From a virus, in the IMG/VR virus record IMGVR_UViG_3300027749_000039, positions 126,603 through 190,602 of that record: a stretch of 64,000 nt of DNA; one strand, 5' to 3'. The translations under genes and the position numbers were made by a program. The notes beneath the pieces were generated by a model. That model had not been told where the DNA came from and did not search any database. It worked only from the letters and a program-made list of their open reading frames with translations. Shown here piece after piece: positions 3,030 to 46,262 of this stretch (position 1 is its first letter; each line of letters starts with the position of its first letter).

Positions 3030-3119
3030 ATGAAACATTTCAGCTCACATAAACATTCGTTTAAATTCTGGTTTAGCAATCAGGGTTCGGTAGAGTTTTG
3101 TTTCAAAAATGCTTCATAA
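3030..3119 (+). CDS. Attenuator leader peptide L1: MKHFSSHKHSFKFWFSNQGSVEFCFKNAS
   Basis: 3 His, 6 Phe, 1 Trp, 6 Ser; directly upstream of a terminator and His/Trp/Phe/Ser tRNAs. Confidence 0.85.
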   Translation: MKHFSSHKHSFKFWFSNQGSVEFCFKNAS

Positions 3120-3138
3120 GAAGTTATTGAAATGAACT

Positions 3139-3179
3139 AAAAATCTCCGAACTTTATATAAAGTTCGGAGATTTTTTTT
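3139..3179 (+). terminator. Intrinsic terminator of attenuator L1
   Basis: AAAAATCTCCGAACTT-TATATA-AAGTTCGGAGATTTTTTTT. Confidence 0.9.
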
Positions 3180-3183
3180 ATAT

Positions 3184-3257
3184 GGTGATATTGGTGTTAG
3201 CGGTTAGCATGGGACCCTGTGAAGGTCTAGGGACGGATTCGAATTCCGTATATCACC
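3184..3257 (+). tRNA. tRNA-His(GTG)
   Basis: GGACC-CTGTGAA-GGTCT; encoded G-1 opposite C73. Confidence 0.9.
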
Positions 3258-3327
3258 CAAGAAAAGGTAGATTAAACAAAGAAATTATTTAATTGAAACT
3301 AGTATAGATTAAATAATCGTATTGATG

Positions 3328-3379
3328 GTAAAGGTAAGCGGTTAAGCGGAAGATAGTGGTTCGAATCCACTCCTTTTCA
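3328..3379 (+). ncRNA. tRNA-like unit lacking an anticodon arm
   Basis: Acceptor GTAAAGG/CCTTTTC, perfect T arm AGTGG-TTCGAAT-CCACT, only 20 nt between them. Confidence 0.5.
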
Positions 3380-3390
3380 CGAAATAATAT

Positions 3391-3464
3391 GGTGATTGTA
3401 GCTCAATTGGTAGAGCGCAGGTTTGTGGAACCTGAGGTAGCGGGGTCGGAGCTCGTCAATCACC
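3391..3464 (+). tRNA. tRNA-His(GTG), second copy
   Basis: CAGGT-TTGTGGA-ACCTG; G-1:C73; atypical T loop GTCGGAG. Confidence 0.85.
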
Positions 3465-3469
3465 CAATA

Positions 3470-3542
3470 AGGTAATCAAGCTAACTTGGTAACGTGGGAG
3501 ATTCCAACCCTCCAGTCGTCGGATCGTAACCGGCTGTTCGTG
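3470..3542 (+). pseudogene. Degenerate tRNA-Trp(CCA)-like unit
   Basis: Anticodon loop TTCCAAC, intact T arm and G73, but the 5' acceptor strand does not pair. Confidence 0.45.
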
Positions 3543-3553
3543 CAAAATAAAAT

Positions 3554-3626
3554 ACGGGTATGGTGAAAATGGCTATCATTTTTGTCTCCAAAACAAAAGT
3601 TCCGGATTCGAATTCTGGTGCCCGTG
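3554..3626 (+). tRNA. tRNA-Trp(CCA)
   Basis: TTTGT-CTCCAAA-ACAAA; ACGGGTA/TGCCCGT; G73. Confidence 0.9.
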
Positions 3627-3633
3627 CTAAAAT

Positions 3634-3705
3634 GGTGTTGTAACATAGAGGTTTATGTGTTGATCTGAAAAATCAAAAATGCCAGATCGTTACTGGCCGA
3701 CACCA
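3634..3705 (+). tRNA. tRNA-Phe(GAA)
   Basis: TTGAT-CTGAAAA-ATCAA; A73; T loop ATCGTTA. Confidence 0.85.
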
Positions 3706-3768
3706 CAAAAATAAATTAAAAAAGGAAGACGCACCCATTTTATATATAAGTAAATAACAAATATAAAA

Positions 3769-4647
3769 ATGGGTGCGAATTCAAAAGAATGGACAGAAAA
3801 GGAAAAAGAAATACTTTTTAAATATTTTCCGAGTATGGGTAGTAATTATTGTTCAGAATTAACAGGAAGAACAAAAAGAGCTTGTCAAGAAATGGCAAAA
3901 AAATTAAAATTGAAGAGAGATTTAGATAAGTATGAAGATAAAGAAAAATTAGAGGAGTTAGTTAAAGGTTGTAAATCATATACAGAATGTGTAATAAAAT
4001 TGGGGTTATCTCCCAGATGTTCTGGTAATTTTCAGACTATCAAAAAATATATCACAATATATAATATAGATATTTCACATTTTGAAAATGGATTTCAAAT
4101 AGGCAACAAACCTCAAAATAAGAAAGAATTATCAGAAGTTTTAATAGAAAACTCTTTTTTTAGCAGAACTCATCTTAAAGAGAGACTATATAAAGAGGAA
4201 TTAAAAAAGAAAGAATGTGAGATATGTGGAATTGGTGAAGATTGGTTTAATGGAACTAAAATAGTCCATATTTTAGACCATATAAATGGTGAGCCTTATG
4301 ATAATCGTCTTGAAAATTTAAGAATCGTTTGTCCTAATTGTAATTCAACATTAGAAACAAATTGTGTTGGGAATAAAGTTAATAAAATATATGATTCTAA
4401 AAAAGATGAATATAAAAGTGAAAAAACACATAAAAAATGTAATTGTGGTAAAATAATTTTGAAAGAAAGTAAATTTTGTTCAGAATGCAATGCCAAAAGT
4501 AAAAGAAAAATTATTAATAGACCAACATTTGAAGAATTAGTTAAGTTAATAGAAGAAAATGGTAATACTGGAACAGGTAAAATATACGGCGTTAGCGAAG
4601 CTGTCATAAGAAAATGGTTAAAACAATATAAAAATAAATTAGTATAG
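3769..4647 (+). mobile_element. HNH homing endonuclease inside tRNA cluster 1
   Basis: CEICG...LDHINGEPYDNRLENLRIVCPNCNS; C-terminal RPTFEEL..YGVSEAVIRKW HTH; N-terminal Myb-like repeat. Confidence 0.9.
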
Positions 4648-4660
4648 AATATACTAAAAT

Positions 4661-4735
4661 ACAGACTAGTCTATGGTAGTCGGCGGAACTCCAAATCCCG
4701 TGTGACTCGAGTCAGTTCAATTCTGGCAGTCTGTG
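4661..4735 (+). tRNA. tRNA-Trp(CCA), second
   Basis: Loop CTCCAAA, acceptor ACAGACT/AGTCTGT, G73; one mismatch in the anticodon stem. Confidence 0.7.
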
Positions 4736-4745
4736 CTAATAAATT

Positions 4746-4829
4746 GGAAAGTCCTAATTAGGAGTAGTTAGCCGTTTTGAAAACGGTGAAGGTGTAATAG
4801 CCGTGGGGGTTCGAGTCCGTCACTTTCCG
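4746..4829 (+). tRNA. tRNA-Ser(TGA)
   Basis: GCCGT-TTTGAAA-ACGGT, long variable arm, G73. Confidence 0.8.
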
Positions 4830-4840
4830 CAAAATAAAAT

Positions 4841-4918
4841 ACGGGTTTCGTCTAATATTTAAGACACCTCCCGGCAAGGGAGTTAATGTTGTAAGGGTGA
4901 AAATCCTACAACCCGTGC
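4841..4918 (+). pseudogene. tRNA-like unit with unassignable anticodon loop
   Basis: Acceptor ACGGGTT/AACCCGT plus G73 (Trp-like), D stem GTCT/AGAC, loop GGCAAG (6 nt), T loop GTGAAAA. Confidence 0.45.
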
Positions 4919-4933
4919 AAAAAGATTAAAATT

Positions 4934-4969
4934 ATGAAACAATATAAACAGATTAAACAAAAACAATAA
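4934..4969 (+). CDS. Lys-rich mini leader peptide MKQYKQIKQKQ
   Basis: 4 AAA codons in 11, directly upstream of three tRNA-Lys genes; followed by two mutually exclusive hairpins. Confidence 0.6.
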   Translation: MKQYKQIKQKQ

Positions 4970-5001
4970 GTTAGGCTCCTATGGATGCTTAACAAATATA
5001 A

Positions 5002-5076
5002 GCATTCGTAACTCAGAGGCAGAGTATTCGGCTTTTAACCGAAGTGGCGAGATTTCAAAATTCTCCGGATGCACCA
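5002..5076 (+). tRNA. tRNA-Lys(TTT), CCA encoded
   Basis: TTCGG-CTTTTAA-CCGAA. Confidence 0.9.
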
Positions 5077-5079
5077 AAA

Positions 5080-5151
5080 CCGCTTGTAGCAAACTGGTGT
5101 AGGCAAGAGTCTTTTAAACTCTGGGGCTGGGTTCGACTCCCGGCAGGCGGA
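5080..5151 (+). tRNA. tRNA-Lys(TTT), second
   Basis: AGAGT-CTTTTAA-ACTCT. Confidence 0.9.
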
Positions 5152-5156
5152 CAATA

Positions 5157-5228
5157 GATTTTATATGTCAATGGTTAGACTAGCAGACTCTTAATCTGCG
5201 GATCTGAGTTCGAGTCTCAGTGAAATCA
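5157..5228 (+). tRNA. tRNA-Lys(CTT)
   Basis: GCAGA-CTCTTAA-TCTGC. Confidence 0.9.
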
Positions 5229-5244
5229 CAAAAAATTTTTAAAA

Positions 5245-6513
5245 ATGTTAGAAATAAAATTATTTAGGCAAAATAAGGACCTAATTATAGAAGGACTTAA
5301 AAAGAAAAATTTTAAGCAACTTAATTTAGTTGATGAAATTATTAAATTGGATGAAGATTTAAGAAAATTAAAACAGGAAACTGAAAATTTAACTTCTGTT
5401 ATTAATAAAAATAATAGCGAAATTGCAAGATATATTAAAACAGATGCAGTTAAGGTAGAAAATATTAAAACTCATAATATTATTTTAAATGAAAAAATTG
5501 AGGAATTAACTAATATACTAAATCAAACTGAAAACGAGTTATTGGATAATTTAATTCAATTACCAAATCTTCCAAATCAAATTGTAGAAATAGACAATGG
5601 TAATGAAGCAACTAATGGTAATGTTATTATAAGAGAAAACTTAACTCAGTGTACACAAGGTAAACCTCATTGGGAAGTAATTAAAGATTTAAATATAGTT
5701 AGTTTTGAACTAGGAACTAAAATTACTGGTGCTGGGTTTCCTGTTTATATCGGAAAAGGCGCAAGATTACAAAGAGCTTTAATTCAATATTTTTTAGATT
5801 ATAATACTAATGCTGGTTATACAGAATATAATATACCATTAATGGTTAATTATGATTCTGCATATGGTACAGGACAACTCCCTGATAAAGAAGGTCAAAT
5901 GTATTATGCTGAAAAGGATAATTTATACTTAATTCCAACAGCAGAAGTTCCTTTAACTAATATCTTTAGAGATGAAATAGTTAATTTGCCCATAAAAATG
6001 ACAGGACATAGTGCTTGTTTTAGAAGAGAAGCTGGCGCACATGGTAAAGAAGTAAGAGGGTTAAATCGAGTTCATCAATTTGAAAAAGTTGAAATAGTTC
6101 AATTAGTTCAACCTGATAAAAGTTATGAAGTATTGGAAGAAATGGTTTTACATGTTGAGAACTTGATAAAAAGCTTAGAATTACCATATAGAATACTTAA
6201 ATTAAGTGGCACAGATATGAGTTTTGCATCTGCTTTAACTTATGACTTTGAAGTATATAGTGCGGCTCAAGACAGATGGTTAGAAGTAAGTTCTGTGAGT
6301 AATTTTGAAACTTTCCAATCTAATCGTATGAAAATTAGATTTAAAGAAGATAAAAAGAACAAATTAGTTCATACTTTAAATGGAAGTTCTTTAGCATTAC
6401 CAAGAATAATGGCTTGCTTATTAGAAAATAATCAAACACATGAAGGTATAAAAATACCAGAAGTATTAATACCGTATTACGGTGACAAATTTTTAACAAA
6501 TGGAAAATTATAA
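5245..6513 (+). CDS. serS: Seryl-tRNA synthetase
   Basis: N-terminal coiled coil, LIPTAEVPL, CFRREAG..RGLNRVHQFEKVE, HTLNGSSLALPR. Confidence 0.97.
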   Translation: MLEIKLFRQNKDLIIEGLKKKNFKQLNLVDEIIKLDEDLRKLKQETENLTSVINKNNSEIARYIKTDAVKVENIKTHNIILNEKIEELTNILNQTENELLDNLIQLPNLPNQIVEIDNGNEATNGNVIIRENLTQCTQGKPHWEVIKDLNIVSFELGTKITGAGFPVYIGKGARLQRALIQYFLDYNTNAGYTEYNIPLMVNYDSAYGTGQLPDKEGQMYYAEKDNLYLIPTAEVPLTNIFRDEIVNLPIKMTGHSACFRREAGAHGKEVRGLNRVHQFEKVEIVQLVQPDKSYEVLEEMVLHVENLIKSLELPYRILKLSGTDMSFASALTYDFEVYSAAQDRWLEVSSVSNFETFQSNRMKIRFKEDKKNKLVHTLNGSSLALPRIMACLLENNQTHEGIKIPEVLIPYYGDKFLTNGKL

Positions 6514-6745
6514 AAAATTAATAGAGAAATATAAAGTTGAAATAGTAGATTATATTATTTCTTCAAAAGACCAATTAGAAGAATACCGTAAAAAGTATTT
6601 AGGCGCAAATGGAATTATAAAACAAGTTTATAATCAATTAAAACAAGTTCCTGCTGAAAAAAGAAAACAAGCAGGAGAATTGTTAAGAGGATTAAAAGAT
6701 TGTGCTGAAAATAAATATGAAAATTCTTTTGTTAATTCAAAATAA
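6500..6745 (+). CDS. Stand-alone PheRS alpha-subunit N-terminal coiled-coil domain
   Basis: LEEYRKKYLGANGIIKQVYNQLKQVPAEKRKQAGELL matches the PheS N-terminal pattern (..RvkYLGkkG..l..lp.eeR..aG..lN); no catalytic domain follows. Confidence 0.7.
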   Translation: MENYKKLIEKYKVEIVDYIISSKDQLEEYRKKYLGANGIIKQVYNQLKQVPAEKRKQAGELLRGLKDCAENKYENSFVNSK

Positions 6746-6758
6746 TTTCGTATCTTTG
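6728..6758 (+). promoter_or_regulatory. Bacteroidota-type promoter for the Ser/Arg tRNA cluster
   Basis: TTTG-N19-TATCTTTG. Confidence 0.8.
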
Positions 6759-6807: not shown

Positions 6808-6864
6808 ATGAAAACAATATCATCGTCTAGTCGCAGTAGTTTAACTTTGGAAATCCAGAGATGA
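6808..6864 (+). CDS. Attenuator leader peptide L2: MKTISSSSRSSLTLEIQR
   Basis: TCA TCG TCT AGT CGC AGT AGT run upstream of Ser(GCT), Arg(ACG), a Ser-like unit and Ser(GGA). Confidence 0.85.
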   Translation: MKTISSSSRSSLTLEIQR

Positions 6865-6883
6865 TAGTGTATGTATATACTTG

Positions 6884-6915
6884 AAGCCTTGGATTGTAAA
6901 ATTCAAGGCTTTTTT
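6884..6915 (+). terminator. Intrinsic terminator of attenuator L2
   Basis: AAGCCTTGGATT-GTAA-AATTCAAGGCTT-TTTT. Confidence 0.85.
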
Positions 6916-6921
6916 AATTTT

Positions 6922-7012
6922 GGTGAGTTACTCAAGTGGTCAAAGAGGCTTGTTTGCTAAACAAGTAGGACGGTAAAACGTTGCGTGGGTTCGAACCCCA
7001 CACTCACCGCCA
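6922..7012 (+). tRNA. tRNA-Ser(GCT), CCA encoded
   Basis: CTTGT-TTGCTAA-ACAAG, long variable arm, G73. Confidence 0.92.
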
Positions 7013-7062
7013 AAATATACAGATAATTGCGGGTTCGAGACCCGTTCTGGATACAAAAATAT

Positions 7063-7136
7063 GGTCTCATCGTTCAATGGATTTAGGATACTTGGCTACG
7101 AACTAAGAGATTGGGGTTCGAATCCCTATGAGACTA
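7063..7136 (+). tRNA. tRNA-Arg(ACG)
   Basis: CTTGG-CTACGAA-CTAAG. Confidence 0.9.
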
Positions 7137-7142
7137 CTAATA

Positions 7143-7230
7143 GGAAAGTTGGCAGAGCGGTTTAATGCGCTGGCACTGAAGCCGGTGACTGGCAAAAGCC
7201 GGTCCGTGAGTTCGAATCTCATACTTTCTT
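7143..7230 (+). pseudogene. Ser-type tRNA with a 6-nt anticodon loop (ACTGAA) and U73
   Basis: Ser-like body with long variable arm; the loop is one nt short of canonical CTTGAAA. Confidence 0.6.
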
Positions 7231-7234
7231 ATAT

Positions 7235-7324
7235 GGAGAAGTAAAACGAAATTGGTATCGTCCCTGATTGGAAATCAGGTTATCGGGTCAAACTGGTATG
7301 TAGGTTCGAGTCCTATTTTCTCCG
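7235..7324 (+). tRNA. tRNA-Ser(GGA)
   Basis: CCTGA-TTGGAAA-TCAGG, long variable arm, G73. Confidence 0.9.
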
Positions 7325-7368
7325 CAATGTTTCAAAAAAAGAAATATACTTAATAATACACAATTAAA

Positions 7369-15981: not shown

Positions 15982-16012
15982 TTTGCTATTTCAAAACTTT
16001 ATCGTATATTTG
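15982..16012 (+). promoter_or_regulatory. Bacteroidota-type promoter for the Tyr/Glu/Ala/Gly cluster
   Basis: TTTG-N19-TATATTTG. Confidence 0.8.
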
Positions 16013-16059: not shown

Positions 16060-16158
16060 ATGAAAACTACAATAATCACAACACAAGTAATCGGCGCATA
16101 TGAAGCGGGTTATGCCTATGAGGGAACATCTCATGGAGTTGGTAAGTTATGTAGTTAA
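16060..16158 (+). CDS. Attenuator leader peptide L3: MKTTIITTQVIGAYEAGYAYEGTSHGVGKLCS
   Basis: GAYEAGYAYEG block is composed only of Gly/Ala/Tyr/Glu, the four amino acids of the downstream tRNAs. Confidence 0.88.
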   Translation: MKTTIITTQVIGAYEAGYAYEGTSHGVGKLCS

Positions 16159-16180: not shown

Positions 16181-16215
16181 AAAGCATCCAACTCAAAAAG
16201 TTGGATGCTTTTTTT
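16181..16215 (+). terminator. Intrinsic terminator of attenuator L3
   Basis: AAAGCATCCAACT-CAAAA-AGTTGGATGCTTT-TTTT. Confidence 0.9.
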
Positions 16216-16225: not shown

Positions 16226-16309
16226 GGGAGTGTTGGGCAATTGGCTGGCCCGCCTGACTGTAAATCAGGTTCTTCGGACATGGGGGTTCAAATCCCTCCA
16301 CTCTCACCA
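16226..16309 (+). tRNA. tRNA-Tyr(GTA), CCA encoded
   Basis: CCTGA-CTGTAAA-TCAGG, long variable arm, A73. Confidence 0.92.
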
Positions 16310-16313
16310 AATT

Positions 16314-16393
16314 CGTTCAGTTGTCTAGCGGCAATGACTGGGAGCTGTAACCTCCCCTCTTCGGATTCGTAGGTTCGAGTCCTACCTGAACGA
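16314..16393 (+). tRNA. tRNA-Tyr(GTA), second; C1:G72
   Basis: GGGAG-CTGTAAC-CTCCC. Confidence 0.85.
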
Positions 16394-16493
16394 CAAAAAT
16401 ATACTGGTATTATTAACAGCGGGATAGATTACCAAATAGGAGGTGAAAGTCCTTATGACCGTACAGAGAAAGGCTTTGTGTATATTTTTATCT

Positions 16494-16565
16494 GCTACCA
16501 TAGATTAATCGGTAAATCGTGGCTCTTTCACAGCCAAGTAGGGGGATCGTAACCCCTTGGTAGTA
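16494..16565 (+). tRNA. tRNA-Glu(TTC)
   Basis: TGGCT-CTTTCAC-AGCCA. Confidence 0.88.
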
Positions 16566-16572
16566 CAAACAA

Positions 16573-16644
16573 GGCCCAGTAGATTACTGGCTAAATCGTT
16601 GCACTTTCACTGCAAAGAAGACGGATCGAACCCGTTCTGGGCTG
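16573..16644 (+). tRNA. tRNA-Glu(TTC), second
   Basis: TTGCA-CTTTCAC-TGCAA. Confidence 0.88.
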
Positions 16645-16678
16645 CAAGGGTGTTAGTTATTCCGGAATAACTAACTTT

Positions 16679-16746
16679 AGTATAGTAGCTCAATTGGTAG
16701 AGCGGTGGTGATTCACAGGCAGTAGGTTCAAAACCTATCTATACAC
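16679..16746 (+). ncRNA. tRNA-like unit with shrunken anticodon arm
   Basis: Canonical D arm (GCTC-AATTGGTA-GAGC) and T arm; the anticodon arm is only 12 nt (GTGGTGATTCAC). Confidence 0.55.
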
Positions 16747-16757
16747 AAAATTAACAA

Positions 16758-16831
16758 GTCAGGTTTGACAAGCGGCTTAAGTCACCTTCCTCTCAAGAAG
16801 GACATCATGGGTTCGAATCCCATACTTGATT
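16758..16831 (+). tRNA. tRNA-Glu(CTC)
   Basis: CCTTC-CTCTCAA-GAAGG. Confidence 0.85.
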
Positions 16832-16890
16832 CACAGAAAAGGTTATCTGGGTGGATTTTTCAACAGAAAATGAAACTCCGAGCCTTAGAC

Positions 16891-16964
16891 GGGGCGGCAT
16901 GTACCAAGGCTGGCGAAGAACACTTGCAATGTTCCTGTGGTGAGTTCAATTCTCATCCGCTCCA
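16891..16964 (+). tRNA. tRNA-Ala(TGC)
   Basis: GAACA-CTTGCAA-TGTTC; G3:U70. Confidence 0.88.
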
Positions 16965-17013
16965 CGAAGTGAAGGAAAACACGATAAACCCGTCTGCTAG
17001 GACGTAAAATAAC

Positions 17014-17085
17014 GCAGAGATAGTATAACGGTTATTACACTGGCTTGCCAAGCCGGATATGGGAGTTCGATTCTCCTTCTCTGCT
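17014..17085 (+). tRNA. tRNA-Gly(GCC)
   Basis: CTGGC-TTGCCAA-GCCGG; U73. Confidence 0.92.
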
Positions 17086-17143
17086 CTAAAAATGGTTCGA
17101 CCGCTAAATCGAGTTAGTGAAAATCTACATTCGAACCATATGA

Positions 17144-17216
17144 GGGGGATTAGTTGTAATTGGCAAAACGTGGGCTTTGCAAGTCTGAGTTGCCGGATCG
17201 TTGCCGGCATCCTCCA
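17144..17216 (+). tRNA. tRNA-Ala(TGC), second
   Basis: Loop TTTGCAA; G3:U70; T loop ATCGTTG. Confidence 0.85.
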
Positions 17217-17272
17217 CAACAAAATAGTGATAGAGCGGCTTTGAACTTTTATATATAAAAATAAAAGTTCAA

Positions 17273-17908
17273 TTGCATCACACAATTTATAAAATAACCA
17301 ATTTAATAAATGGCAAAATTTATATTGGAAAACACTCAACAAATGATATTAAAGATAACTACTACGGTAGTGGGAAATTAATTAAAAGTGCTATAGAAAA
17401 ATATGGTATTATTAATTTCACAAAAGAAATTTTGTTTAATTTTCAATCAGAGGAAGAAGCTTATGCCAAGGAAAAGGAAATAGTAAATGAAAGTTTCATA
17501 AAAAGAAAAGATGTTTATAACCTTATAATAGGGGGTGATACATTTGAAGCTATTAATTCCAATTTAGAATTAAGAAAAGCTAAAAATAAGAAAGCTGCAT
17601 TAATTATGAATTCTGTAAATTGGAATAATCCAGAATTTAGAAAAAGGCAAACTGATAAAATGATATTACAAAATAAAAAATTGCATAAAGAAGGAATTCT
17701 TAAAAGTGTTGATTGGACCGGAAAGAAACATAAGGATGAAAGCAAAGAGAAAATGAGGGAAAAGGCAAAATTGAGAATAGGTGATAAAAACTCTTCATTT
17801 GGAACTTGTTGGATATATAATGAAAATGAAAGTAAGAAAATAAAAAAAGAAGATTTAGAAAACTACTTATCTATTGGATGGATAAAAGGTAGAAAAATTA
17901 AATTTTAA
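17273..17908 (+). mobile_element. GIY-YIG homing endonuclease (Seg-like, NUMOD3) in tRNA cluster 3; TTG start
   Basis: TIYKITNLINGKIYIGKH..YYGSGKLIKSAIEKYG; TGKKHKDESKEKM. Confidence 0.9.
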
Positions 17909-17911
17909 TAA

Positions 17912-17994
17912 GCGAGTATAGTATAACGGAGGCGAAAGCCGTATTATGCTGGTCTTCCAAACCGGATATGAGAGTTCGATTCTCTCTACTCGCT
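17912..17994 (+). tRNA. tRNA-Gly(TCC) with an extra hairpin inserted in the D loop
   Basis: CTGGT-CTTCCAA-ACCGG; D loop contains GGC-GAAA-GCC. Confidence 0.82.
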
Positions 17995-18001
17995 CTAAAA
18001 T

Positions 18002-31206: not shown

Positions 31207-31308
31207 ATGAAAAACATTAATAGAAATAATAATACCATAAATTTAGTCATAAATAACGTGAATACGTTATGCGTGATTAGAGGAGTTATGGGGTTAAGTC
31301 TATTATGA
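31207..31308 (+). CDS. Attenuator leader peptide L4: MKNINRNNNTINLVINNVNTLCVIRGVMGLSLL
   Basis: Residues 3-25 are all N/I/R/T/L/V/C, exactly the downstream tRNA set. Confidence 0.88.
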   Translation: MKNINRNNNTINLVINNVNTLCVIRGVMGLSLL

Positions 31309-31335: not shown

Positions 31336-31369
31336 AATCTCAAACTCAAAAAGTTTGAGATTTTTTTTT
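31336..31369 (+). terminator. Intrinsic terminator of attenuator L4
   Basis: AATCTCAAACT-CAAAA-AGTTTGAGATT-TTTTTTT. Confidence 0.9.
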
Positions 31370-31379: not shown

Positions 31380-31467
31380 GGCGCAGTGATGAAACTGGTT
31401 AGTACATGCAGGACTTAAAATCCTGTGGACAGAAATGTCCGTGTCGGTTCGACTCCGACCTGCGCTA
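31380..31467 (+). tRNA. tRNA-Leu(TAA), long variable arm
   Basis: CAGGA-CTTAAAA-TCCTG; A73. Confidence 0.92.
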
Positions 31468-31474
31468 CAAAACT

Positions 31475-31548
31475 CGGCGGGTAGCTTAGACGGTAAAAGC
31501 ACGAATCTTATAAATTCGAGATAGTGGGATCGTTACCCACCCCTCCGA
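31475..31548 (+). tRNA. tRNA-Ile(TAT)
   Basis: CGAAT-CTTATAA-ATTCG. Confidence 0.85.
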
Positions 31549-31553
31549 CAAAT

Positions 31554-31626
31554 GGTTCTATCGTACAATGGATTAGTACAAGGCTCTTCTAAAGCCTTTA
31601 TGTGGGTTCGAATCCCGCTGGAACTA
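31554..31626 (+). tRNA. tRNA-Arg(TCT)
   Basis: AGGCT-CTTCTAA-AGCCT. Confidence 0.9.
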
Positions 31627-31677
31627 CAATCGTTATTAATTTTTATTAGGGAGTTCGGTTTATATAATATATAATTT

Positions 31678-32484
31678 ATGAGACATAAACAAACAGAACA
31701 AACTAAAAAGAAGTTATCAGAAATAAGAAAAAAATGGTTAGCAGATAATCCAGAAAAACATCCATGGAAAAGAAAAGATAAATTCTTATCTAAGCCTTGT
31801 GAATTTTTCAAAAAGAAATTATTGGAAAATAATTTAACTTTTTCGGAAGAACAAAACTTACTTGAAGGAAGAGCATATTCGGTAGATGTAGTTTTTTATG
31901 ATAAAATGATTGGATTTAAAATAAATGGAAATCAACATTATAATTCAGATAAAACTCTTAAAGATTATTATAAAAAAAGGAAAGAAGAGATTGAAATTTT
32001 AGGATGGAAATTATATGATATACATTATACAAAAGTTTATAATGAAAAATTTATAGAGGAAATAATAAAATTCATAAAAGAGCAAAAGGAAATTCCAAAT
32101 TTTAATTTTGAATTTTTTATAAAAAAGGTTAAAAAAATATGTAAAGATTGTGGTAAAGAAATATCATATAATAGCATAGAAAGATGTTTAAAATGTCATA
32201 ATATATCCAGAAGAACAGAAAAATATGAAGTTAATTTAAAATATAAAATAGGTGCTAATAAAAAAGAAAAATTTATAAAAAATTGTAATTGTGGTGAAAT
32301 AATATCCATAAATTCAAATAATTGTAAGGAATGTTTTGATAAAATACAAAGAAAAATAGTTGATAGACCAAGTTTAGAAATTTTATTAGAAGAGGTTAAA
32401 GATATAGGATATAGTGCGGTTGGTAGAAAATATGGAGTTAGTGATAATTCTATAAGAAAGTGGATAAAAAATTATCAAAAATAA
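31678..32484 (+). mobile_element. DUF559/Vsr-like homing endonuclease with C-terminal HTH, in tRNA cluster 4
   Basis: YSVDVVF..IGFKINGNQHY..R....EILGW; RPSLEILLEEV..VGRKYGVSDNSIRKW. Confidence 0.7.
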
Positions 32485-32488
32485 AAAT

Positions 32489-32560
32489 TGTCGTATAGCT
32501 TAGTGGGGAAGCGTCAGCAGAAGTAGCTGAAGGGCATAGGTTCAATTCCTGTTGCGACTA
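32489..32560 (+). pseudogene. tRNA-like unit, anticodon loop AGAAGTA (AAG, G33)
   Basis: TCAGC/GCTGA stem, normal D and T arms, U1xU72. Confidence 0.5.
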
Positions 32561-32567
32561 CAAATAA

Positions 32568-32639
32568 GGTTCCTTAACTCAGAGGCAGAGTGCTACTTTT
32601 ACATGGTAGAAGTCGGGATTTCAAAATTCCCAGGAACCA
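32568..32639 (+). tRNA. tRNA-Val(TAC)
   Basis: CTACT-TTTACAT-GGTAG. Confidence 0.88.
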
Positions 32640-32646
32640 CAAAAAT

Positions 32647-32718
32647 TGGAATGTAGCTCAGAGGCAGAGCAGGATCCTGTTAAGATCAAGGTCGAGATAT
32701 CGTAATTCTCCATTCCAG
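32647..32718 (+). tRNA. tRNA-Asn(GTT)
   Basis: GATC-CTGTTAA-GATC; G73. Confidence 0.85.
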
Positions 32719-32723
32719 CAAAT

Positions 32724-32795
32724 AGTCTTATAGCTCAAAGGCAGAGTGCCTGTTCGACATACAGGAGGTTGCGATATCGTAATTCGCTAAGACTA
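32724..32795 (+). tRNA. tRNA-Val(GAC), C33
   Basis: CCTGT-TCGACAT-ACAGG. Confidence 0.82.
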
Positions 32796-32804
32796 CAAAT
32801 AAAG

Positions 32805-32878
32805 GGGCGTATGGTGAAATTGGTTTATCACGTCTGACTGTTAATCAGTTATTATAGGTTCGAGTCCTATTGTGCCCG
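32805..32878 (+). tRNA. tRNA-Asn(GTT), second
   Basis: CTGA-CTGTTAA-TCAG; G73. Confidence 0.88.
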
Positions 32879-32905
32879 CTAATTAAATAAAAAAAGTAAA
32901 TAATA

Positions 32906-32984
32906 CGGAACGTACCGAGTCACACTGATAATGTGGATATTCGTAAAGGTGTTGAAAATGAGATTTCAAGATTCTCCGTTCCGA
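32906..32984 (+). ncRNA. D-armless tRNA-Ile(GAT)-like RNA with long variable region
   Basis: Perfect acceptor CGGAACG/CGTTCCG, A73, TCACA-CTGATAA-TGTGG, only 7 nt where the D arm should be. Confidence 0.6.
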
Positions 32985-32990
32985 CAAAAT

Positions 32991-33066
32991 GCCAAATTAG
33001 TATAGCGGCGATTATACCAACCTTGTAAGTTGCGAGACACCAGTTCGAGTCTGGTATTTGGCTCCA
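32991..33066 (+). tRNA. tRNA-Thr(TGT), CCA encoded
   Basis: CAAC-CTTGTAA-GTTG; GCC/GGC acceptor. Confidence 0.88.
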
Positions 33067-33100
33067 CTACTGATCAGAATCCAGTGATTCAGATCTAAAA

Positions 33101-33176
33101 CGGACTATAGCTCATTATTGGTTAGAGCGTCACGCTGATAACGTGAAGGTGGTTGGATCGAAGCCAGCTAGTCCGA
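33101..33176 (+). tRNA. tRNA-Ile(GAT)
   Basis: TCACG-CTGATAA-CGTGA. Confidence 0.9.
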
Positions 33177-33182
33177 CAAAAT

Positions 33183-33255
33183 GCTAAAGTGTCTGAATGG
33201 TTGAGGAACTTTCTTGGTATGAAAGATAATATCGGTTCGAATCCGTTCTTTAGCT
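33183..33255 (+). tRNA. tRNA-Thr(GGT)
   Basis: CTTTC-TTGGTAT-GAAAG. Confidence 0.9.
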
Positions 33256-33261
33256 CTTAAT

Positions 33262-33334
33262 GGCGCCTTGGTCGAGTGGTTATAGGCGCAGGTCTGCAAA
33301 ACCTGATACATTGGTTCAATTCCAGTAGGCGCCT
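33262..33334 (+). tRNA. tRNA-Cys(GCA)
   Basis: CAGGT-CTGCAAA-ACCTG; U73. Confidence 0.92.
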
Positions 33335-33347
33335 CAAATTAAATAAA

Positions 33348-34348: not shown

Positions 34349-34379
34349 TTTGTAGTTTCAAAACTTTATTGTATCTTTG
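34349..34379 (+). promoter_or_regulatory. Bacteroidota-type promoter for the Leu/Met tRNA-asnS unit
   Basis: TTTG-N19-TATCTTTG. Confidence 0.8.
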
Positions 34380-34431: not shown

Positions 34432-34500
34432 ATGAAAAACATCAATCTAAATATGAATTTGCTTAATCTAATGGAAACATTGGACAGGATTCTTATATAG
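34432..34500 (+). CDS. Attenuator leader peptide L5: MKNINLNMNLLNLMETLDRILI
   Basis: Leu codons CTA x2, TTG x2, CTT x2; Met x3; Asn x5. Confidence 0.88.
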   Translation: MKNINLNMNLLNLMETLDRILI

Positions 34501-34524: not shown

Positions 34525-34558
34525 AAAATCCTGTTCACAATCTGAACAGGATTTTTTT
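34525..34558 (+). terminator. Intrinsic terminator of attenuator L5
   Basis: AAAATCCTGTTCA-CAATC-TGAACAGGATTTT-TTT. Confidence 0.9.
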
Positions 34559-34561: not shown

Positions 34562-34637
34562 GGCACTCTATCCCAACAAGAGCAGAGGACTCAGCTTTAG
34601 AACCTGAGAGTTGTGGGTTCAAATCCCACGAGTGTCA
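34562..34637 (+). tRNA. tRNA-Leu(TAG) with short variable arm
   Basis: TCAGC-TTTAGAA-CCTGA (C31xC39), 5-nt variable loop, A73. Confidence 0.7.
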
Positions 34638-34697
34638 CACAACTCGAACTCTGGTAGATAAAAAATAAGGGACTGTTATGTATATAATATATACATA

Positions 34698-35531
34698 ATG
34701 GAAAATAAAAAATTTATTGAAATATGCCAAACAGCCGTAAGTATGGCTGAGGCAGCTAGAATTATAGGAATTGGATTTAATTCTTTTAAGAAAAAAGCAT
34801 TAATATTAAATTGTTATAAAACTAATCAAAATTGGAGAAAAGGTAAAACTGTTTTAAATGATGATAGAATAGAAAGTAAACATACTTTATTTTGTGAAAA
34901 TTCTTCCGCAAGAAGAGAATATATTAAAGGTTTAATTATTAAACATAATTTAATTGAATATAAATGTTTTGATTGTGGATTAAAAAATGAATGGAATGGG
35001 AAAATTTTAAACTTACAGTTAGACCATATAAATGGTGTAAAAAATGATAATAGACTTGAAAATTTAAGATTTATGTGCCCTAATTGTCATTCACAAACAG
35101 AAACATGGTGTAAAAGTAAAGGTAATTCAATAAATAATTTAGATATAGAAATCTTAATTAATACTATAAATAAGTCATTTTCTATGACTAAATTAATTGA
35201 TAAATTAGGAATCTATGATACACAAAATAATAGAAAGAAAATCAAAAAAATAATGATAGAAAATAATCTATCTTTTGAATTTGATAAACAGGAAAAGAAT
35301 AAAATAAATAGTTGTAAGTGTGGTAAATCTATTAAAAAATCAAGTAAAATGTGTTCTAAATGTTGGCAGATAGAACAAAGAAAAGTTAATAGACCTACAT
35401 ATGAGCAGTTAAAAAAAGAAGTAGAAGAAATTGGATATTCAGCAACAGGTAGAAAATATAATGTTTCTGATAATTGCATAAGAAAATGGTTAAAAGCATA
35501 TGTACCCCAATTGGCAGAGGGACACCGTTAA
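34698..35531 (+). mobile_element. HNH homing endonuclease in tRNA cluster 5
   Basis: LQLDHINGVKNDNRLENLRFMCPNCHSQT; C-terminal TGRKYNVSDNCIRKW HTH; 3' end overlaps tRNA-Leu(AAG). Confidence 0.9.
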
Positions 35532-35570
35532 GAGCGGTGATAGGTGTCGGATCGTTGCCGACTATATGCA
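35496..35570 (+). tRNA. tRNA-Leu(AAG) with short variable arm
   Basis: CACCG-TTAAGAG-CGGTG; GCATATG/TATATGC; A73. Confidence 0.75.
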
Positions 35571-35638
35571 CAAAGATTGCGCTGATGAGAATTGTAGGTG
35601 CAATTTCTAGTTGTAGAGTATTTCACAATACTCTCTCT

Positions 35639-35712
35639 ACCGAAGTGATGTAATTGGTAAACATCTTATTTTCAAAAAATAAGTTTTGAGGGATCGTAGC
35701 CCTTCTTCGGTA
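35639..35712 (+). tRNA. tRNA-Leu(CAA) with short variable arm
   Basis: TTATT-TTCAAAA-AATAA; ACCGAAG/CTTCGGT; A73. Confidence 0.75.
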
Positions 35713-35770
35713 CTATCATTGAAATAGTTGTATATTATGATAAATGGTATAGTTATGATATAATTAATAA

Positions 35771-35855
35771 GCCGCTATGAGCAGATGTGGTAATTGCGAC
35801 GGACTCATAATCCGTTTTCTGTAAGATAGTGTTGGTTCGAGTCCAACTAGCGGTA
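35771..35855 (+). tRNA. tRNA-Met(CAT), elongator-type, long variable arm (Ile2 not excluded)
   Basis: ACGGA-CTCATAA-TCCGT. Confidence 0.82.
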
Positions 35856-35910
35856 CAGACATAATAAATATAAAAAGTTATTATGATCACATAAAAGAAA
35901 ATTTATTAAA

Positions 35911-36171
35911 ATGGAAAATTTGAAAGATGTAAAGGTCGCAGACCTTGTTAGAAACGCTAAGGCAAAAATTGCTTATGTTCAAAGTGGTATAATTTATTAC
36001 CAAATTGAAAATGATACGCATGTAACTATGCTTCCGATTGATCTTAATAATGAAGATATTAAACAAGATATAGGAACTTCAAGATTAGATGCGGAATATA
36101 GTGGTATTACTTTAATGCGTTATATTAACAAAGCAATAAAATTAGGTACATTAGCGTATTATAAAAAGTAA
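35911..36171 (+). CDS. Hypothetical protein
   Basis: 86 aa track ORF. Confidence 0.6.
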   Translation: MENLKDVKVADLVRNAKAKIAYVQSGIIYYQIENDTHVTMLPIDLNNEDIKQDIGTSRLDAEYSGITLMRYINKAIKLGTLAYYKK

Positions 36172-36305
36172 ATAAAATGGAAACTATAAAAATAAAAACT
36201 GCGGGCGTCTATGGTGCAGTAATTGCACCATTCGCCTTCTATAATTAGTAATTTTTAATCGAATAAAAATTAAAAATACTAATTATAAAAATAAAAGCAG
36301 TTAAA

Positions 36306-37496
36306 ATGAAAAAAAAACAAGGATGGATTAAATCCATAAGACAATCCAAAGGATTAATATTTGTAGCAGTTACAGACGGAGCAAAAGATTTCCAAGTAAC
36401 AATAGTAGAAGCCGAATGTAAAATATACGGCGAACTAAAAGTAGGAGCTTCTTTTGAAGCACAAGGTAAAGATTCAACAACCCCAAAAGGATTATTTGAA
36501 TTTAAAGCATCTGAGTTTAAGATAATAGGTAGTTCCGATGACAGCTACCCTATACAGCCCAAGTCCCATGGTATGGATTTTCTACGTTCTATTTTAGAAT
36601 ATAGAGGAAAAACTAAACAATTTCAAGCAATTTGGAAAATTAGGCATCATTTAACACAGGCTATACATCAATTTTTTGATAGTGAAGGATTTTATCTCTA
36701 CCAAATTCCTATCATTATAGACAGCGATTGTGAGGGTGCCGGTGAAACTTTCCAAGTAAAAACTGAATGGTTAGATAGAGTTTTAACCGTATCAGGTCAG
36801 CTACATGGTGAAGTGGGTGCCATGAGTCTTGGTAAAATTTATTCATTTAGTCCATCTTTTAGAGCAGAAAAATCAGCCACCAAAAAACACTTAAGTGAGT
36901 TTTGGCATCTTGAACCAGAAATAGGATGGTATAGCATGGAAGATACTATGAGATTAGCAGAAAAATCTATAAAATTCTTTATCACATATGTATTAGAAAA
37001 ATGTGAATATGAATTTAAACAATTAGGTATAACTACTGAACATCTAACAGATGTTATAGAAAAAGAATGGAAAACTATTAAATACGAAGAAATAGTTAAA
37101 CTATTTGGTGTTAAATATGGTGAGGATATAAACTCGGAAACAGAACAGAAAATTGTAACACATTTTGGTTGCCCTGTGTTTATAACACATTATCCTGAAT
37201 CATTAAAGCCCTTTTACATGAAGAAAATAGGAGGTGTTGCTTTTTGTTTTGATTTGATTTTTGAATCAATAGGGGAATTAATTGGAGGTTCTGAGCGAGA
37301 AGATTCTTATGATAAATTAAAACAGTCTATGATAGATTCTGGTTTAGATTTAGATAAAATGGATTGGTATTTAAACACCAGAAAACACGGTTCAATTCCA
37401 CATAGTGGATATGGAATGGGATTTGAACGTCTGTTGATGTTTATTACAAAAGTTCCAAAAATACATGATGTTATACCTTTTCCTGTATCTTATTAA
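36306..37496 (+). CDS. asnS: Asparaginyl-tRNA synthetase
   Basis: OB fold, SDCEGAGETF, LTVSGQL, FRAEKS.T.KHLSEFWHLEPE, GGSERE, PHSGYGMGFER. Confidence 0.95.
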   Translation: MKKKQGWIKSIRQSKGLIFVAVTDGAKDFQVTIVEAECKIYGELKVGASFEAQGKDSTTPKGLFEFKASEFKIIGSSDDSYPIQPKSHGMDFLRSILEYRGKTKQFQAIWKIRHHLTQAIHQFFDSEGFYLYQIPIIIDSDCEGAGETFQVKTEWLDRVLTVSGQLHGEVGAMSLGKIYSFSPSFRAEKSATKKHLSEFWHLEPEIGWYSMEDTMRLAEKSIKFFITYVLEKCEYEFKQLGITTEHLTDVIEKEWKTIKYEEIVKLFGVKYGEDINSETEQKIVTHFGCPVFITHYPESLKPFYMKKIGGVAFCFDLIFESIGELIGGSEREDSYDKLKQSMIDSGLDLDKMDWYLNTRKHGSIPHSGYGMGFERLLMFITKVPKIHDVIPFPVSY

Positions 37497-44378: not shown

Positions 44379-44409
44379 TTTGTATAATCACAAATACTTC
44401 GTATCTTTG
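44379..44409 (+). promoter_or_regulatory. Bacteroidota-type promoter for the Asp/Pro/Gln tRNA-glnS unit
   Basis: TTTG-N19-TATCTTTG. Confidence 0.8.
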
Positions 44410-44483: not shown

Positions 44484-44579
44484 ATGAAAAACATTCTAAA
44501 CATACAAAACCCTCAACAACCGCAAGTTGATGTCGATCAGGATCCTGATACGATGAGGACTAACCATGTTAGAATGTAA
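44484..44579 (+). CDS. Attenuator leader peptide L6: MKNILNIQNPQQPQVDVDQDPDTMRTNHVRM
   Basis: 5 Gln, 3 Pro, 4 Asp in codons 8-22. Confidence 0.88.
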   Translation: MKNILNIQNPQQPQVDVDQDPDTMRTNHVRM

Positions 44580-44602
44580 ATGAATTATATTACATTTTTA
44601 AT

Positions 44603-44635
44603 AGCCAGTTAGTCGAAAGATTAACTGGTTTTTTT
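44603..44635 (+). terminator. Intrinsic terminator of attenuator L6
   Basis: AGCCAGTTAGTC-GAAA-GATTAACTGGTT-TTTTT. Confidence 0.9.
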
Positions 44636-44659
44636 GTTTTATATAGCGAGAATTAGTAA

Positions 44660-44748
44660 GGTTACGGCGAATAATGGCTGGTTCGCTACTCTGTCACAGT
44701 AGTAAGTAGGTTAAAACCGAAAAGAGGGTTCGATTCCCTTCGTAACCG
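44660..44748 (+). tRNA. tRNA-Asp(GTC) with long variable arm
   Basis: CTACT-CTGTCAC-AGTAG; G73. Confidence 0.75.
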
Positions 44749-44753
44749 CAAAA

Positions 44754-44827
44754 GGCACCATATATCAATTGGTTAGATTTTCCGCCTGTCACATGGAAGG
44801 CTACGGGTTCGAGCCCCGTTGGTGTCG
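44754..44827 (+). tRNA. tRNA-Asp(GTC), second
   Basis: Loop CTGTCAC, imperfect stem; G73. Confidence 0.8.
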
Positions 44828-44832
44828 CAAAA

Positions 44833-44906
44833 GGTCTGTTAGTAGAAATGGATACAATATCTCCCTGTCACGGAGAAGGTTGCCGGATCGTACCCGGTAC
44901 AGACCG
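44833..44906 (+). tRNA. tRNA-Asp(GTC), third
   Basis: TCTCC-CTGTCAC-GGAGA; G73. Confidence 0.9.
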
Positions 44907-44911
44907 CTAAA

Positions 44912-44984
44912 CGAGTATGAAGTGTAACCAGGTTGCACACGAATTTTGGGAATTCGTAGAGACGTTCGAATCGTACATGCTCGA
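44912..44984 (+). tRNA. tRNA-Pro(TGG)
   Basis: CGAAT-TTTGGGA-ATTCG; C1:G72, A73; weak T stem. Confidence 0.8.
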
Positions 44985-45037
44985 CAAAAAATCACTGCTT
45001 CGATTAAACTTTCTCCGACAATTTTAATATATATCTT

Positions 45038-45967
45038 ATGGATATAATTAAAATTATAAATGAAAGTTTTTCCATTAATGATTTAGCCAAAAAATTATAT
45101 GGTTATTCTAATGGCAAGAGCAATAAAAAAGCAATAGAAGTTTTAAAACAAAACGGATTTGATATATCTTTTTTTGACGGAAAAAGTAAAAATAGAAAAT
45201 ATCAAAAAATAAAAATTATTTGTCCTATTTGTTTTGTGGAATTTGAAACAACTGAAAATGGTAAAAAAACATGTTCTTCTTCATGTTCTAATTCTTATTT
45301 TCAACACGGGAAAAATAATCCTGATTTTGATCAAGAAAAATATGAGGAAAGATATAAAAAAGTATCTAATACATTAAAAACTAATATTCCTTGGAATAAA
45401 GGCAAAAATGATAAGGCAAAAATAAAAACATGTCTAAATTGTAAAATTGAATTTGAACCTAAAACACACACACAGAAATATTGTTGCAAAAAATGCCAAT
45501 TTTCATGTAAAGAGTATAGAAAATTATTAAGTGACAATGTTAAAGAAAGAATAAAAAATGGAACACATAAAGGTTGGCAATCAAGAAATATTGAGAGTTA
45601 TCCTGAAAAATTCTTTAAAAAAGTATTAAAAAATAATGGTATTGAATATATACCAAATAAAACAATAATAAAAAAAGACTATAATATAGAAGGCAATGGT
45701 AATTATTTTTTAGATTTTTATATAAAAGAAGGAAATATAGATTTAGAAATAGACGGCAAGCAACATGATTATAGGGTCGAACATGATAATGAACGAGATA
45801 ACAATTTATCAAAGCATTTCAACATTTATAGAATAAAATGGCAGTCAATAAATAGCGAAACAGGAAAACAATATATAAAAAAAGAAATTAAAAAATTTAT
45901 AAAATATTATAACAAAATGAAAAACTTAACTTTACAACAACAGCAACAAATGATTAAACTAGATTGA
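45038..45967 (+). mobile_element. DUF559/Vsr-like homing endonuclease with Zn fingers; last 16 codons are the Gln leader
   Basis: YFLDFY...LEIDGKQHD..R....YRIKW; CPIC, CxxxC motifs. Confidence 0.8.
45917..45967 (+). CDS. Attenuator leader peptide L7: MKNLTLQQQQQMIKLD (in frame with the endonuclease ORF)
   Basis: CAA CAA CAG CAA CAA run, typical MKN start; terminator and three tRNA-Gln follow. Confidence 0.85.
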   Translation: MKNLTLQQQQQMIKLD

Positions 45968-45988
45968 TGGTATTGTATAGTTATGTAT

Positions 45989-46020
45989 AAACCTATCAGT
46001 CTAAACTGATAGGTTTTTTT
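45989..46020 (+). terminator. Intrinsic terminator of attenuator L7
   Basis: AAACCTATCAGT-CTAA-ACTGATAGGTTT-TTTT. Confidence 0.9.
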
Positions 46021-46022
46021 AT

Positions 46023-46108
46023 GCTCCTCTGGTGTAATTGGTTAACATACTTGATTTTGAGTCAAGGGACAGGTAATGCAAGTCAGGGTTCGAATCCTTG
46101 GAGGAGTA
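46023..46108 (+). tRNA. tRNA-Gln(TTG) with long variable arm
   Basis: CTTGA-TTTTGAG-TCAAG; A73. Confidence 0.75.
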
Positions 46109-46113
46109 CAAAT

Positions 46114-46185
46114 AGTCCAATAGTGTAACGGTTAGCACAACTCTCTTTGACAGAGTTAGTCTTGGTTCGAATCCAGGTTGAACTA
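46114..46185 (+). tRNA. tRNA-Gln(TTG), second
   Basis: ACTCT-CTTTGAC-AGAGT. Confidence 0.85.
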
Positions 46186-46191
46186 CTACAA

Positions 46192-46262
46192 TGTTCTATG
46201 ATGTAATGGTAGCATAAGAGCTTCTGATTCTCTTTGTATTGGTTCGAGTCCAATTAGAACAA
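46192..46262 (+). tRNA. tRNA-Gln(CTG)
   Basis: AGAG-C-TTCTGAT-T-CTCT. Confidence 0.82.

Follow-up and report, generated by a model that had tools for sequence, protein, structure and literature searches.

We analysed a 64,000-nucleotide (nt) stretch of DNA, the final 64 kb of the single 190.6-kb virus record IMGVR_UViG_3300027749_000039 (record positions 126,603 to 190,602; 27.9% G+C over the whole record), referred to below as the window. Seven units in the window place a short open reading frame (ORF) and a U-tailed hairpin ahead of a block of transfer RNA (tRNA) genes, and the codons of each ORF match the tRNAs encoded behind it. On sequence grounds, we consider it likely that these units are ribosome-mediated (leader-peptide) transcription attenuators placed before phage tRNA operons. 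The same reading had been reached from the letters alone in an earlier examination (the sequence-only reading), and codon match, reading frame, isoacceptor sampling, unit-specific complementarity, start context and conservation all agree with it.

In the mechanism we propose, a host-type RNA polymerase would start at a Bacteroidota-style promoter and transcribe the short ORF, and a ribosome would translate this leader, whose central block consists of codons read by the downstream tRNAs. With fast decoding, the ribosome would reach the stop codon and cover the adjacent strand, the U-tailed hairpin would form, and transcription would end before the tRNA genes. With slow decoding, as when a charged cognate tRNA is scarce, the ribosome would stall upstream, and the freed strand would pair with the 5' arm of the terminator, giving read-through into the tRNA block. 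In four units, read-through would also reach a gene, or gene fragment, for an aminoacyl-tRNA synthetase (aaRS) specific for an amino acid in the leader. Because its products are the molecules sensed, each unit would replenish its own set of tRNAs by negative feedback. Termination at these sites is presumably conditional.

Leader codons and the tRNA blocks behind them

The same order of elements was found seven times in the window: a promoter (missing at unit 7), an ORF beginning MK, a U-tailed hairpin and tRNA genes (Table 1). The leader ORFs start at 3030, 6808, 16060, 31207, 34432, 44484 and 45917 and are 16-33 codons long; the sequence-only reading had listed all seven, together with the U-tailed hairpin and tRNA genes after each, and these elements are all present. 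Each hairpin lies 19-28 nt past the leader stop codon, has an energy of -11.6 to -19.4 kcal/mol and carries six to nine T, and the first tRNA gene follows the terminator after 3-25 nt in every unit. The motif TTTG-N19-TAnnTTTG, the housekeeping promoter type of Bacteroidota, stands ahead of six of the seven leaders at a distance of 48-85 nt from the ATG (231 nt for the leader at 3030). An unbiased scan for a strong terminator with a tRNA within 120 nt downstream and any ATG-initiated ORF ending just before it returned exactly these seven units in the window. A promoter followed by a strong terminator within 60-300 nt occurs five times on the two strands of the 190.6-kb genome, and all five cases are these leaders. 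Since minimum-free-energy folds of the full leader retained the terminator in all seven units, termination appears to be the default state.

Genes of this phage are without a Shine-Dalgarno signal; their start codons are preceded by A at -11, -9, -7 and -5 and followed by an A-rich second codon. When scored with a start-context matrix trained on 135 long-ORF starts, the leader ATGs fell between the 94th and 99.6th percentile among all genomic ATGs. We infer that the leaders are translated.

For the codon-match score, the anticodons of each block were decoded with strict wobble rules. The true pairing of leaders with blocks in the window gave 84 matched codons, more than any other of the 40,320 permutations (mean 25.5, standard deviation 11.6); with automatic blocks and the first two codons of each leader removed, it was again at the top (1 of 5,040). 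True pairing was also the single best in each of four relatives, G001, G002, G003 and G004 (1 of 5040, 720, 120 and 720, respectively; pooled z = 11.2 including the window). The correspondence between leader residues and downstream tRNAs, for which the sequence-only reading had itself suggested a permutation check, is borne out by these results. In the window, 16 of 19 amino acids have their tRNA in the block behind the leader that is richest in them, compared with 3.0 expected by chance.

Codon match depended on reading frame, at 41% in frame versus 16% and 12% in the other two frames. This bears on a translation-independent sensor of the T-box kind, in which uncharged tRNAs would pair with leader triplets and stabilize the antiterminator. 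Triplets complementary to anticodons are present by definition, and a choice between terminator and antiterminator exists; however, the triplets are in frame with a conserved ATG and stop codon, the context of the ATG is gene-like, and up to 11 amino acids per leader would be hard to accommodate in one specifier loop. When the whole window was compared with Rfam, tRNA was the only family above its gathering threshold, and no T-box or other riboswitch was among the matches. We regard a sensor of this kind as very improbable.

In addition to amino acids, the leaders appear to distinguish isoacceptors. Peptides were kept and codons redrawn from the phage's own usage; relative to such synonymous shuffles, the leaders sampled an excess of distinct anticodons, covering 31 of the 32 of the window (P = 0.005) and all 29 of G001 (P < 0.0005). 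The Ser codons of the leader at 6808 comprise two for each of the three downstream Ser isoacceptors. In the leader at 34432, the doubled Leu codons CTA, TTG and CTT correspond to the tag, caa and aag tRNA-Leu genes of its block; TTA, the codon at 67% of Leu positions in the genome, accounts for none of the six Leu codons of this leader, and the block is without tRNA-Leu(taa). The leader at 31207 uses TTA, and its block includes tRNA-Leu(taa). The Asn codons of the 34432 leader have no matching tRNA in unit 5, which is closed by AsnRS; Asn tRNAs do occur in the block behind the homologous leader of G002 and G004. These codons may be inherited, may serve control of AsnRS, or both.

Terminator pairing and a fixed-terminator alternative

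In all seven units, the best partner of the terminator 5' arm lies at the 3' end of the leader ORF, and this antiterminator strand either overlaps the stop codon or stops 3-22 nt short of it. In this position, it would be covered by a ribosome that has reached the stop. Significance was evaluated for each unit with 1000 dinucleotide shuffles. The antiterminator exceeded shuffles at 3030 (p = 0.005), 31207 (p = 0.013) and 34432 (p < 0.001, 11 bp) and was borderline at 45917 (p = 0.06). The complementary strand that the sequence-only reading had placed near the 3' end of each leader is thus present in seven of seven units, but it stands individually above shuffles for 3030, 31207 and 34432 only. 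Over the 31 units of five genomes, duplex energies of leaders with their own terminator arms summed to -304.8 kcal/mol, versus -217.3 kcal/mol (standard deviation 10.9) for permuted arms, with 0 of 100,000 permutations reaching the true value (P < 1e-5); this statistic is inflated by homologous units and is therefore taken as collective support. A compensatory change between the window and G001 was found in the antiterminator pairing of the 34432 family.

Several observations weigh against attenuation. The antiterminator was not above shuffles for 44484 (p = 0.20), 16060 (p = 0.35) or 6808 (p = 0.42), and in the Ser/Arg family it is weak in all five genomes compared. The last control codons of some units lie 4-9 nt before the antiterminator strand, so close that stalling at them might mask the strand. 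Coupling of transcription and translation on these transcripts is assumed. Finally, a within-family comparison of tRNA gain and loss with leader content gave eight concordant and four discordant cases (p = 0.19); partly confounded by missed tRNA calls, it is not significant and is not counted as support.

The main rival is a fixed partial terminator, which would set a constant low level of tRNA transcription or insulate against upstream signals, with the ORF just loading ribosomes, for instance to block Rho or stabilize the RNA, and not sensing the supply of tRNA. Antiterminators no better than shuffles at 6808, 16060 and 44484 are what this rival can point to, as is a conserved mini-ORF at 4934 whose hairpin is without a T-tract, so that the classical switch is not universal. 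A fixed terminator leaves unexplained, however, why leader codons track tRNAs in five genomes, why synonymous codons sample the isoacceptors and why antiterminator strands match their own terminator arms, and we consider it unlikely.

Relatives, synthetases and neighbouring features

Leader-peptide attenuation gains further support from other giant phages. The closest relatives, all IMG/VR contigs, span 345-519 kb and include one that is complete with terminal repeats; the published huge phages LR745206.1 and LR756502.1 are related as well. Genomes in this size class were predicted to infect Bacteroidetes (PMC7162821). A DNA-level search of GenBank phages gave tRNA-level and endonuclease matches only. 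Homologues of GlnRS (60-69% identity) were located at eleven IMG/VR loci and in two GenBank genomes, and in nearly all of the relatives located in this way, Asp/Pro tRNAs, Gln tRNAs and GlnRS follow in the same order. A P/Q/D-rich leader precedes the Asp/Pro tRNAs of these relatives, and the leader before their Gln tRNAs has an uninterrupted run of four to seven Gln codons; each leader has its own terminator. Homologous Asp/Pro and Gln leaders are present in L001, L003, L004, L007, L008, L010, L011, L021 and L022; altogether, at least ten other giant-phage contigs, LR745206.1 and LR756502.1 among them, carry homologous leaders.

The unbiased scan was also applied to the tRNA regions of G001-G004 and gave 24 further units. 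G003 splits its tRNAs among blocks differently, and each G003 leader still fits its own block: a leader with a run of five Lys stands ahead of five Lys tRNAs, one rich in N, T, S, H and F ahead of Phe, Ser, Asn, His and Thr tRNAs, and one of 46 codons ahead of 19 tRNAs for eleven amino acids. Conserved codon content with diverged sequence, which the sequence-only reading had proposed looking for in related giant phages, was found, including in G003, and the leaders of G001-G004 match their own blocks.

Conservation of the leader peptides among related phages is also what would be seen if the short ORFs encoded micropeptides with a function of their own, their likeness in composition to the blocks being unrelated. 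The features kept, however, are codon content and placement with respect to the terminator, with no peptide motif; G003 leaders have diverged yet match their blocks, and the 45917 leader serves as well on its own as it does at the end of an endonuclease ORF. A micropeptide function is, in our judgement, highly improbable as an explanation. That small ORFs, ordinary terminators and tRNA genes just happen to fall together in this AT-rich genome might be argued on the grounds that short ORFs starting MK are common at 28% G+C and that some antiterminators have only 7 bp. Chance would, however, have to produce the best pairing in five genomes, a promoter-terminator pattern unique to the leaders and a design recurring in at least ten contigs; it is scarcely credible and, within the reach of computation, is refuted by permutation and conservation.

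Translation genes among the tRNAs of the window are SerRS, an ORF for the PheRS N-terminal domain, an AlaRS fragment, AsnRS and GlnRS. Every one of these synthetase genes or fragments lies in a unit with its amino acid in the leader (Ser and Phe at 3030, Ala at 16060, Asn at 34432 and Gln at 45917). No terminator-like site was found between the unit 5 tRNAs and AsnRS, and GlnRS is located 3' of the Gln tRNAs in all relatives; it is plausible that AsnRS and GlnRS are included in the attenuated units. SerRS and the PheRS N-domain ORF (5245..6745) are probably the distal genes of unit 1. Synthetase pieces also stand alone, namely the PheRS N-terminal-domain ORF (6500-6745, 81 aa) and the ORF at 18859-19638 (259 aa), the latter matching the AlaRS catalytic domain in its first part only. 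Both fragments could be trans-acting domains or remnants.

Two elements differ from the sequence-only reading. The leader at 45917 had been listed among the seven short ORFs; it is not separate in this genome, where the DUF559 ORF at 45038-45967 continues into it in frame and without a stop codon between them. The same is seen in G001, whereas the Gln leader is a stand-alone ORF in most relatives, and for this reason the fusion is read as a by-product of endonuclease insertion. The other is the Lys leader at 4934, which the sequence-only reading had added to the seven. This element has no U-tailed terminator, and it was rejected as an eighth canonical attenuator, its hairpin being weak and without a T-tract. 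A K-rich ORF of 9-12 codons (4-5 Lys), with a stop codon adjoining or overlapping a G+C-rich hairpin, is kept before the Lys tRNAs in G001, G002 and G004, and the 4934 element is probably functional in some way. The Lys tRNAs of the window appear to sit under the leader at 3030, whose control block contains four Lys codons.

Located between the promoter and leader of unit 1, the tRNA-Met(cat) pair is outside attenuator control and would be made constitutively. By eye, the first of these tRNAs (2832-2904; the second is at 2919-2991) has an A1-U72 pair and an anticodon stem without three G-C pairs; on both counts, it is read as elongator-like and not as an initiator, a reading that covers this first tRNA alone. 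The stop codon of the 34432 leader is a TAG (34498-34500), read-through of which would add four codons up to a TAA at 34513-34515, nearer the terminator. An amber-suppressor tRNA with anticodon cta is encoded in the same genome outside the window (G000:C1:54412-54485).

Default ARAGORN called 45 tRNA genes in the window, every one on the + strand, and relaxed thresholds or Rfam gave extra tRNAs beyond these 45. Homing-endonuclease-like ORFs (HNH, GIY-YIG, restriction endonuclease-like and DUF559) are interspersed with the tRNAs at 3769-4647, 17273-17908, 31678-32484, 34698-35531 and 45038-45967. The Ser(tga) gene of unit 1 (4746-4830) is weakly supported, and by eye the tRNA at 17912-17994 is a Gly(tcc). 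An Rfam tRNA match of 119 nt at 3261-3379 (36.7 bits), uncalled by ARAGORN, has a long internal insertion that sets the acceptor/D region apart from the T arm. Spacers of the array contain tRNA-like or tRNA-fragment elements, including T-arm-like hairpins and acceptor-like stems (3466-3553, 4842-4920, 18003-18075, 32905-32985 and 7013-7062); these could represent decayed tRNAs or signals for processing. ARAGORN assigns an 8-nt anticodon loop, with ctga as a four-base anticodon, to the class II, Ser-like tRNA at 7142-7231. This would be a tRNA-Ser(tga) whose loop is unusual or else a candidate suppressor of frameshifts.

Table 1. Elements of the seven leader units and associated features, in window coordinates unless another contig is named.
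Feature	Position	Strand	Remarks
Unit 1 promoter	2768..2798	+	TTTG-N19-TAnnTTTG
Two tRNA-Met(cat) genes	2832-2991	+	Between unit 1 promoter and leader, upstream of terminator
Unit 1 leader	3030..3119	+	29 codons; codons 2-16 K, H, F, S, W exclusively
Unit 1 antiterminator strand	3081-3095	+	Complementary to terminator 5' arm
Unit 1 intrinsic terminator	3141..3179	+	-19.4 kcal/mol, eight T
Unit 1 tRNA block	3185..5229	+	His x2, Trp, Phe, HNH endonuclease ORF (3769-4647), Trp, Ser(tga), Lys x3
K-rich mini-ORF	4934..4993	+	11 codons; adjoining hairpin without T-tract, just before Lys tRNAs
Lys mini-ORFs in relatives	L013 (reverse complement) 4329; L014 2223; L018 9779		No T-tract
SerRS	5245-6513	+	3' of unit 1 tRNAs
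PheRS N-terminal-domain ORF	6500-6745	+	After SerRS
Unit 2 promoter	6728..6758	+	
Unit 2 leader	6808..6864	+	18 codons; six Ser codons and CGC (Arg)
Unit 2 antiterminator strand	6851-6859	+	Weak
Unit 2 terminator	6883..6915	+	
Unit 2 tRNAs	6922..7325	+	Ser(gct), Arg(acg), Ser-like (ctga, 8-nt anticodon loop), Ser(gga)
Unit 3 promoter	15982..16012	+	
Unit 3 leader	16060..16158	+	32 codons; 11-codon run of G, A, Y, E alone (16093-16125)
Unit 3 antiterminator strand	16136-16149	+	
Unit 3 terminator	16181..16215	+	
Unit 3 block	16226..19638	+	Tyr x2, Glu x3, Ala(tgc) x2, Gly(gcc), GIY-YIG ORF, tRNA 17912-17994, Ala(ggc), AlaRS fragment 18859-19638
Second tRNA-Ala(tgc)	16891-16965		Relaxed/Rfam call
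Further tRNA matches	16679-16746, 17912-17994, 18003-18075		Relaxed/Rfam calls
Unit 4 promoter	31092..31122	+	
Unit 4 leader	31207..31308	+	33 codons; 28 of 32 post-ATG codons read by tRNAs of the block
Unit 4 antiterminator strand	31283-31296	+	
Unit 4 terminator	31336..31369	+	
Unit 4 tRNAs	31380..33335	+	Leu(taa), Ile(tat), Arg(tct), endonuclease-like ORF, Leu(aag), Val x2, Asn x2, Thr x2, Ile(gat), Cys
Unit 5 promoter	34349..34379	+	
Unit 5 leader	34432..34500	+	22 codons, TAG stop; CTA, TTG, CTT, ATG twice each, zero TTA, five Asn codons
Unit 5 antiterminator strand	34480-34492	+	11 bp
Unit 5 terminator	34526..34558	+	
Unit 5 block	34562..37496	+	Leu(tag), HNH ORF, Leu(aag), Leu(caa), Met(cat), small ORF, AsnRS (36306-37496)
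Unit 6 promoter	44379..44409	+	
Unit 6 leader	44484..44579	+	31 codons; P/Q/D-rich block 44511-44549
Unit 6 antiterminator strand	44557-44565	+	
Unit 6 terminator	44603..44635	+	
Unit 6 tRNAs	44660..44985	+	Asp(gtc) x3, Pro(tgg)
tRNA-Pro(tgg)	44913-44983	+	Rfam 34.5 bits; missed by default ARAGORN
Unit 7 leader	45917..45967	+	16 codons, five-Gln run; in frame with end of DUF559 endonuclease ORF 45038-45967
Unit 7 antiterminator strand	45962-45972	+	Overlaps stop codon
Unit 7 terminator	45989..46020	+	
Unit 7 block	46023..47869	+	Gln(ttg) x2, Gln(ctg), GlnRS (46280-47869)

Known systems and significance

Multivalent attenuators are familiar from enterobacteria, where the ilvGMEDA leader responds to Ile, Val and Leu and the thr leader to Thr and Ile. 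The phage units as interpreted here are like them in having a short translated ORF for several amino acids, mutually exclusive antiterminator and terminator hairpins, and read-through upon slow decoding. In contrast to these leaders, the phage units would regulate tRNA genes and some aaRS genes, not biosynthetic enzymes, so that the sensed molecule is the product; they sample up to 11 amino acids, with synonymous codons apparently chosen for isoacceptors; and they are viral and present in 5-7 copies per genome. The E. coli pheST attenuator, with its pheM leader, places PheRS under the control of charged tRNA-Phe, and involves one amino acid and the synthetase alone, with no tRNA gene behind. 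Units 5 and 7 are similar in that they end in AsnRS and GlnRS and have Asn or Gln codons in the leader, but the phage units put tRNA genes behind the leader. T-box riboswitches of Firmicutes, which are untranslated, bind uncharged tRNA directly and operate a terminator/antiterminator switch upstream of aaRS genes. They would share with the phage units the sensing of the state of a specific tRNA through such a switch, whereas frame dependence in the phage leaders argues for sensing by a ribosome.

To our knowledge, the regulation of large phage tRNA sets is essentially unknown, and bacterial tRNA genes are generally regarded as controlled by promoters and not by attenuation. Al-Shayeb et al. 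(2020; PMC7162821) report huge phages whose genomes carry as many as 67 tRNAs and as many as 15 aaRS. They belong to the same clade as the phage studied here: the GlnRS of LR745206.1 and LR756502.1 is about 60% identical, and both of these genomes have the same leader-terminator units. The main text of PMC7162821 contains no word beginning 'attenuat', 'leader' or 'terminator', and the GenBank records LR745206.1 and LR756502.1 are without annotation. Leader-peptide attenuation of tRNA genes was described, for phages or for cells, in none of the papers reached by full-text search, which took in PMC7162821 and PMC3082878 but not most subscription journals.

Candidate triggers for stalling are a mismatch between host tRNAs and the AT-rich codons of the phage, degradation of host tRNAs, anticodon nucleases, and starvation; that the units might sense starvation or anticodon nucleases is purely inferential. 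More broadly, we suggest tentatively, and with more doubt than conviction, that giant phages of Bacteroidota may run closed-loop, isoacceptor-resolving tRNA homeostats, in which a tRNA block and its linked synthetase would be transcribed only while one of the block's own codons is slow to be decoded; they would replace scarce, mismatched or nuclease-destroyed host tRNAs, serving as both sensor of and countermeasure to tRNA-targeting defence. In giant-phage genomes that lack annotation, the leaders could help to predict transcription units. If the attenuator interpretation is true, leader peptides can serve as multi-amino-acid barcodes tuned to isoacceptors, and the units would make reporters, simple and portable, of how much of a given charged tRNA is available, whichever tRNA is chosen. 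These units would then be the first attenuators in which the output, tRNA, is the sensed input, giving direct feedback on decoding capacity, and they would connect phage tRNA arrays, in a way open to testing, with the depletion or cleavage of host tRNA in infection.

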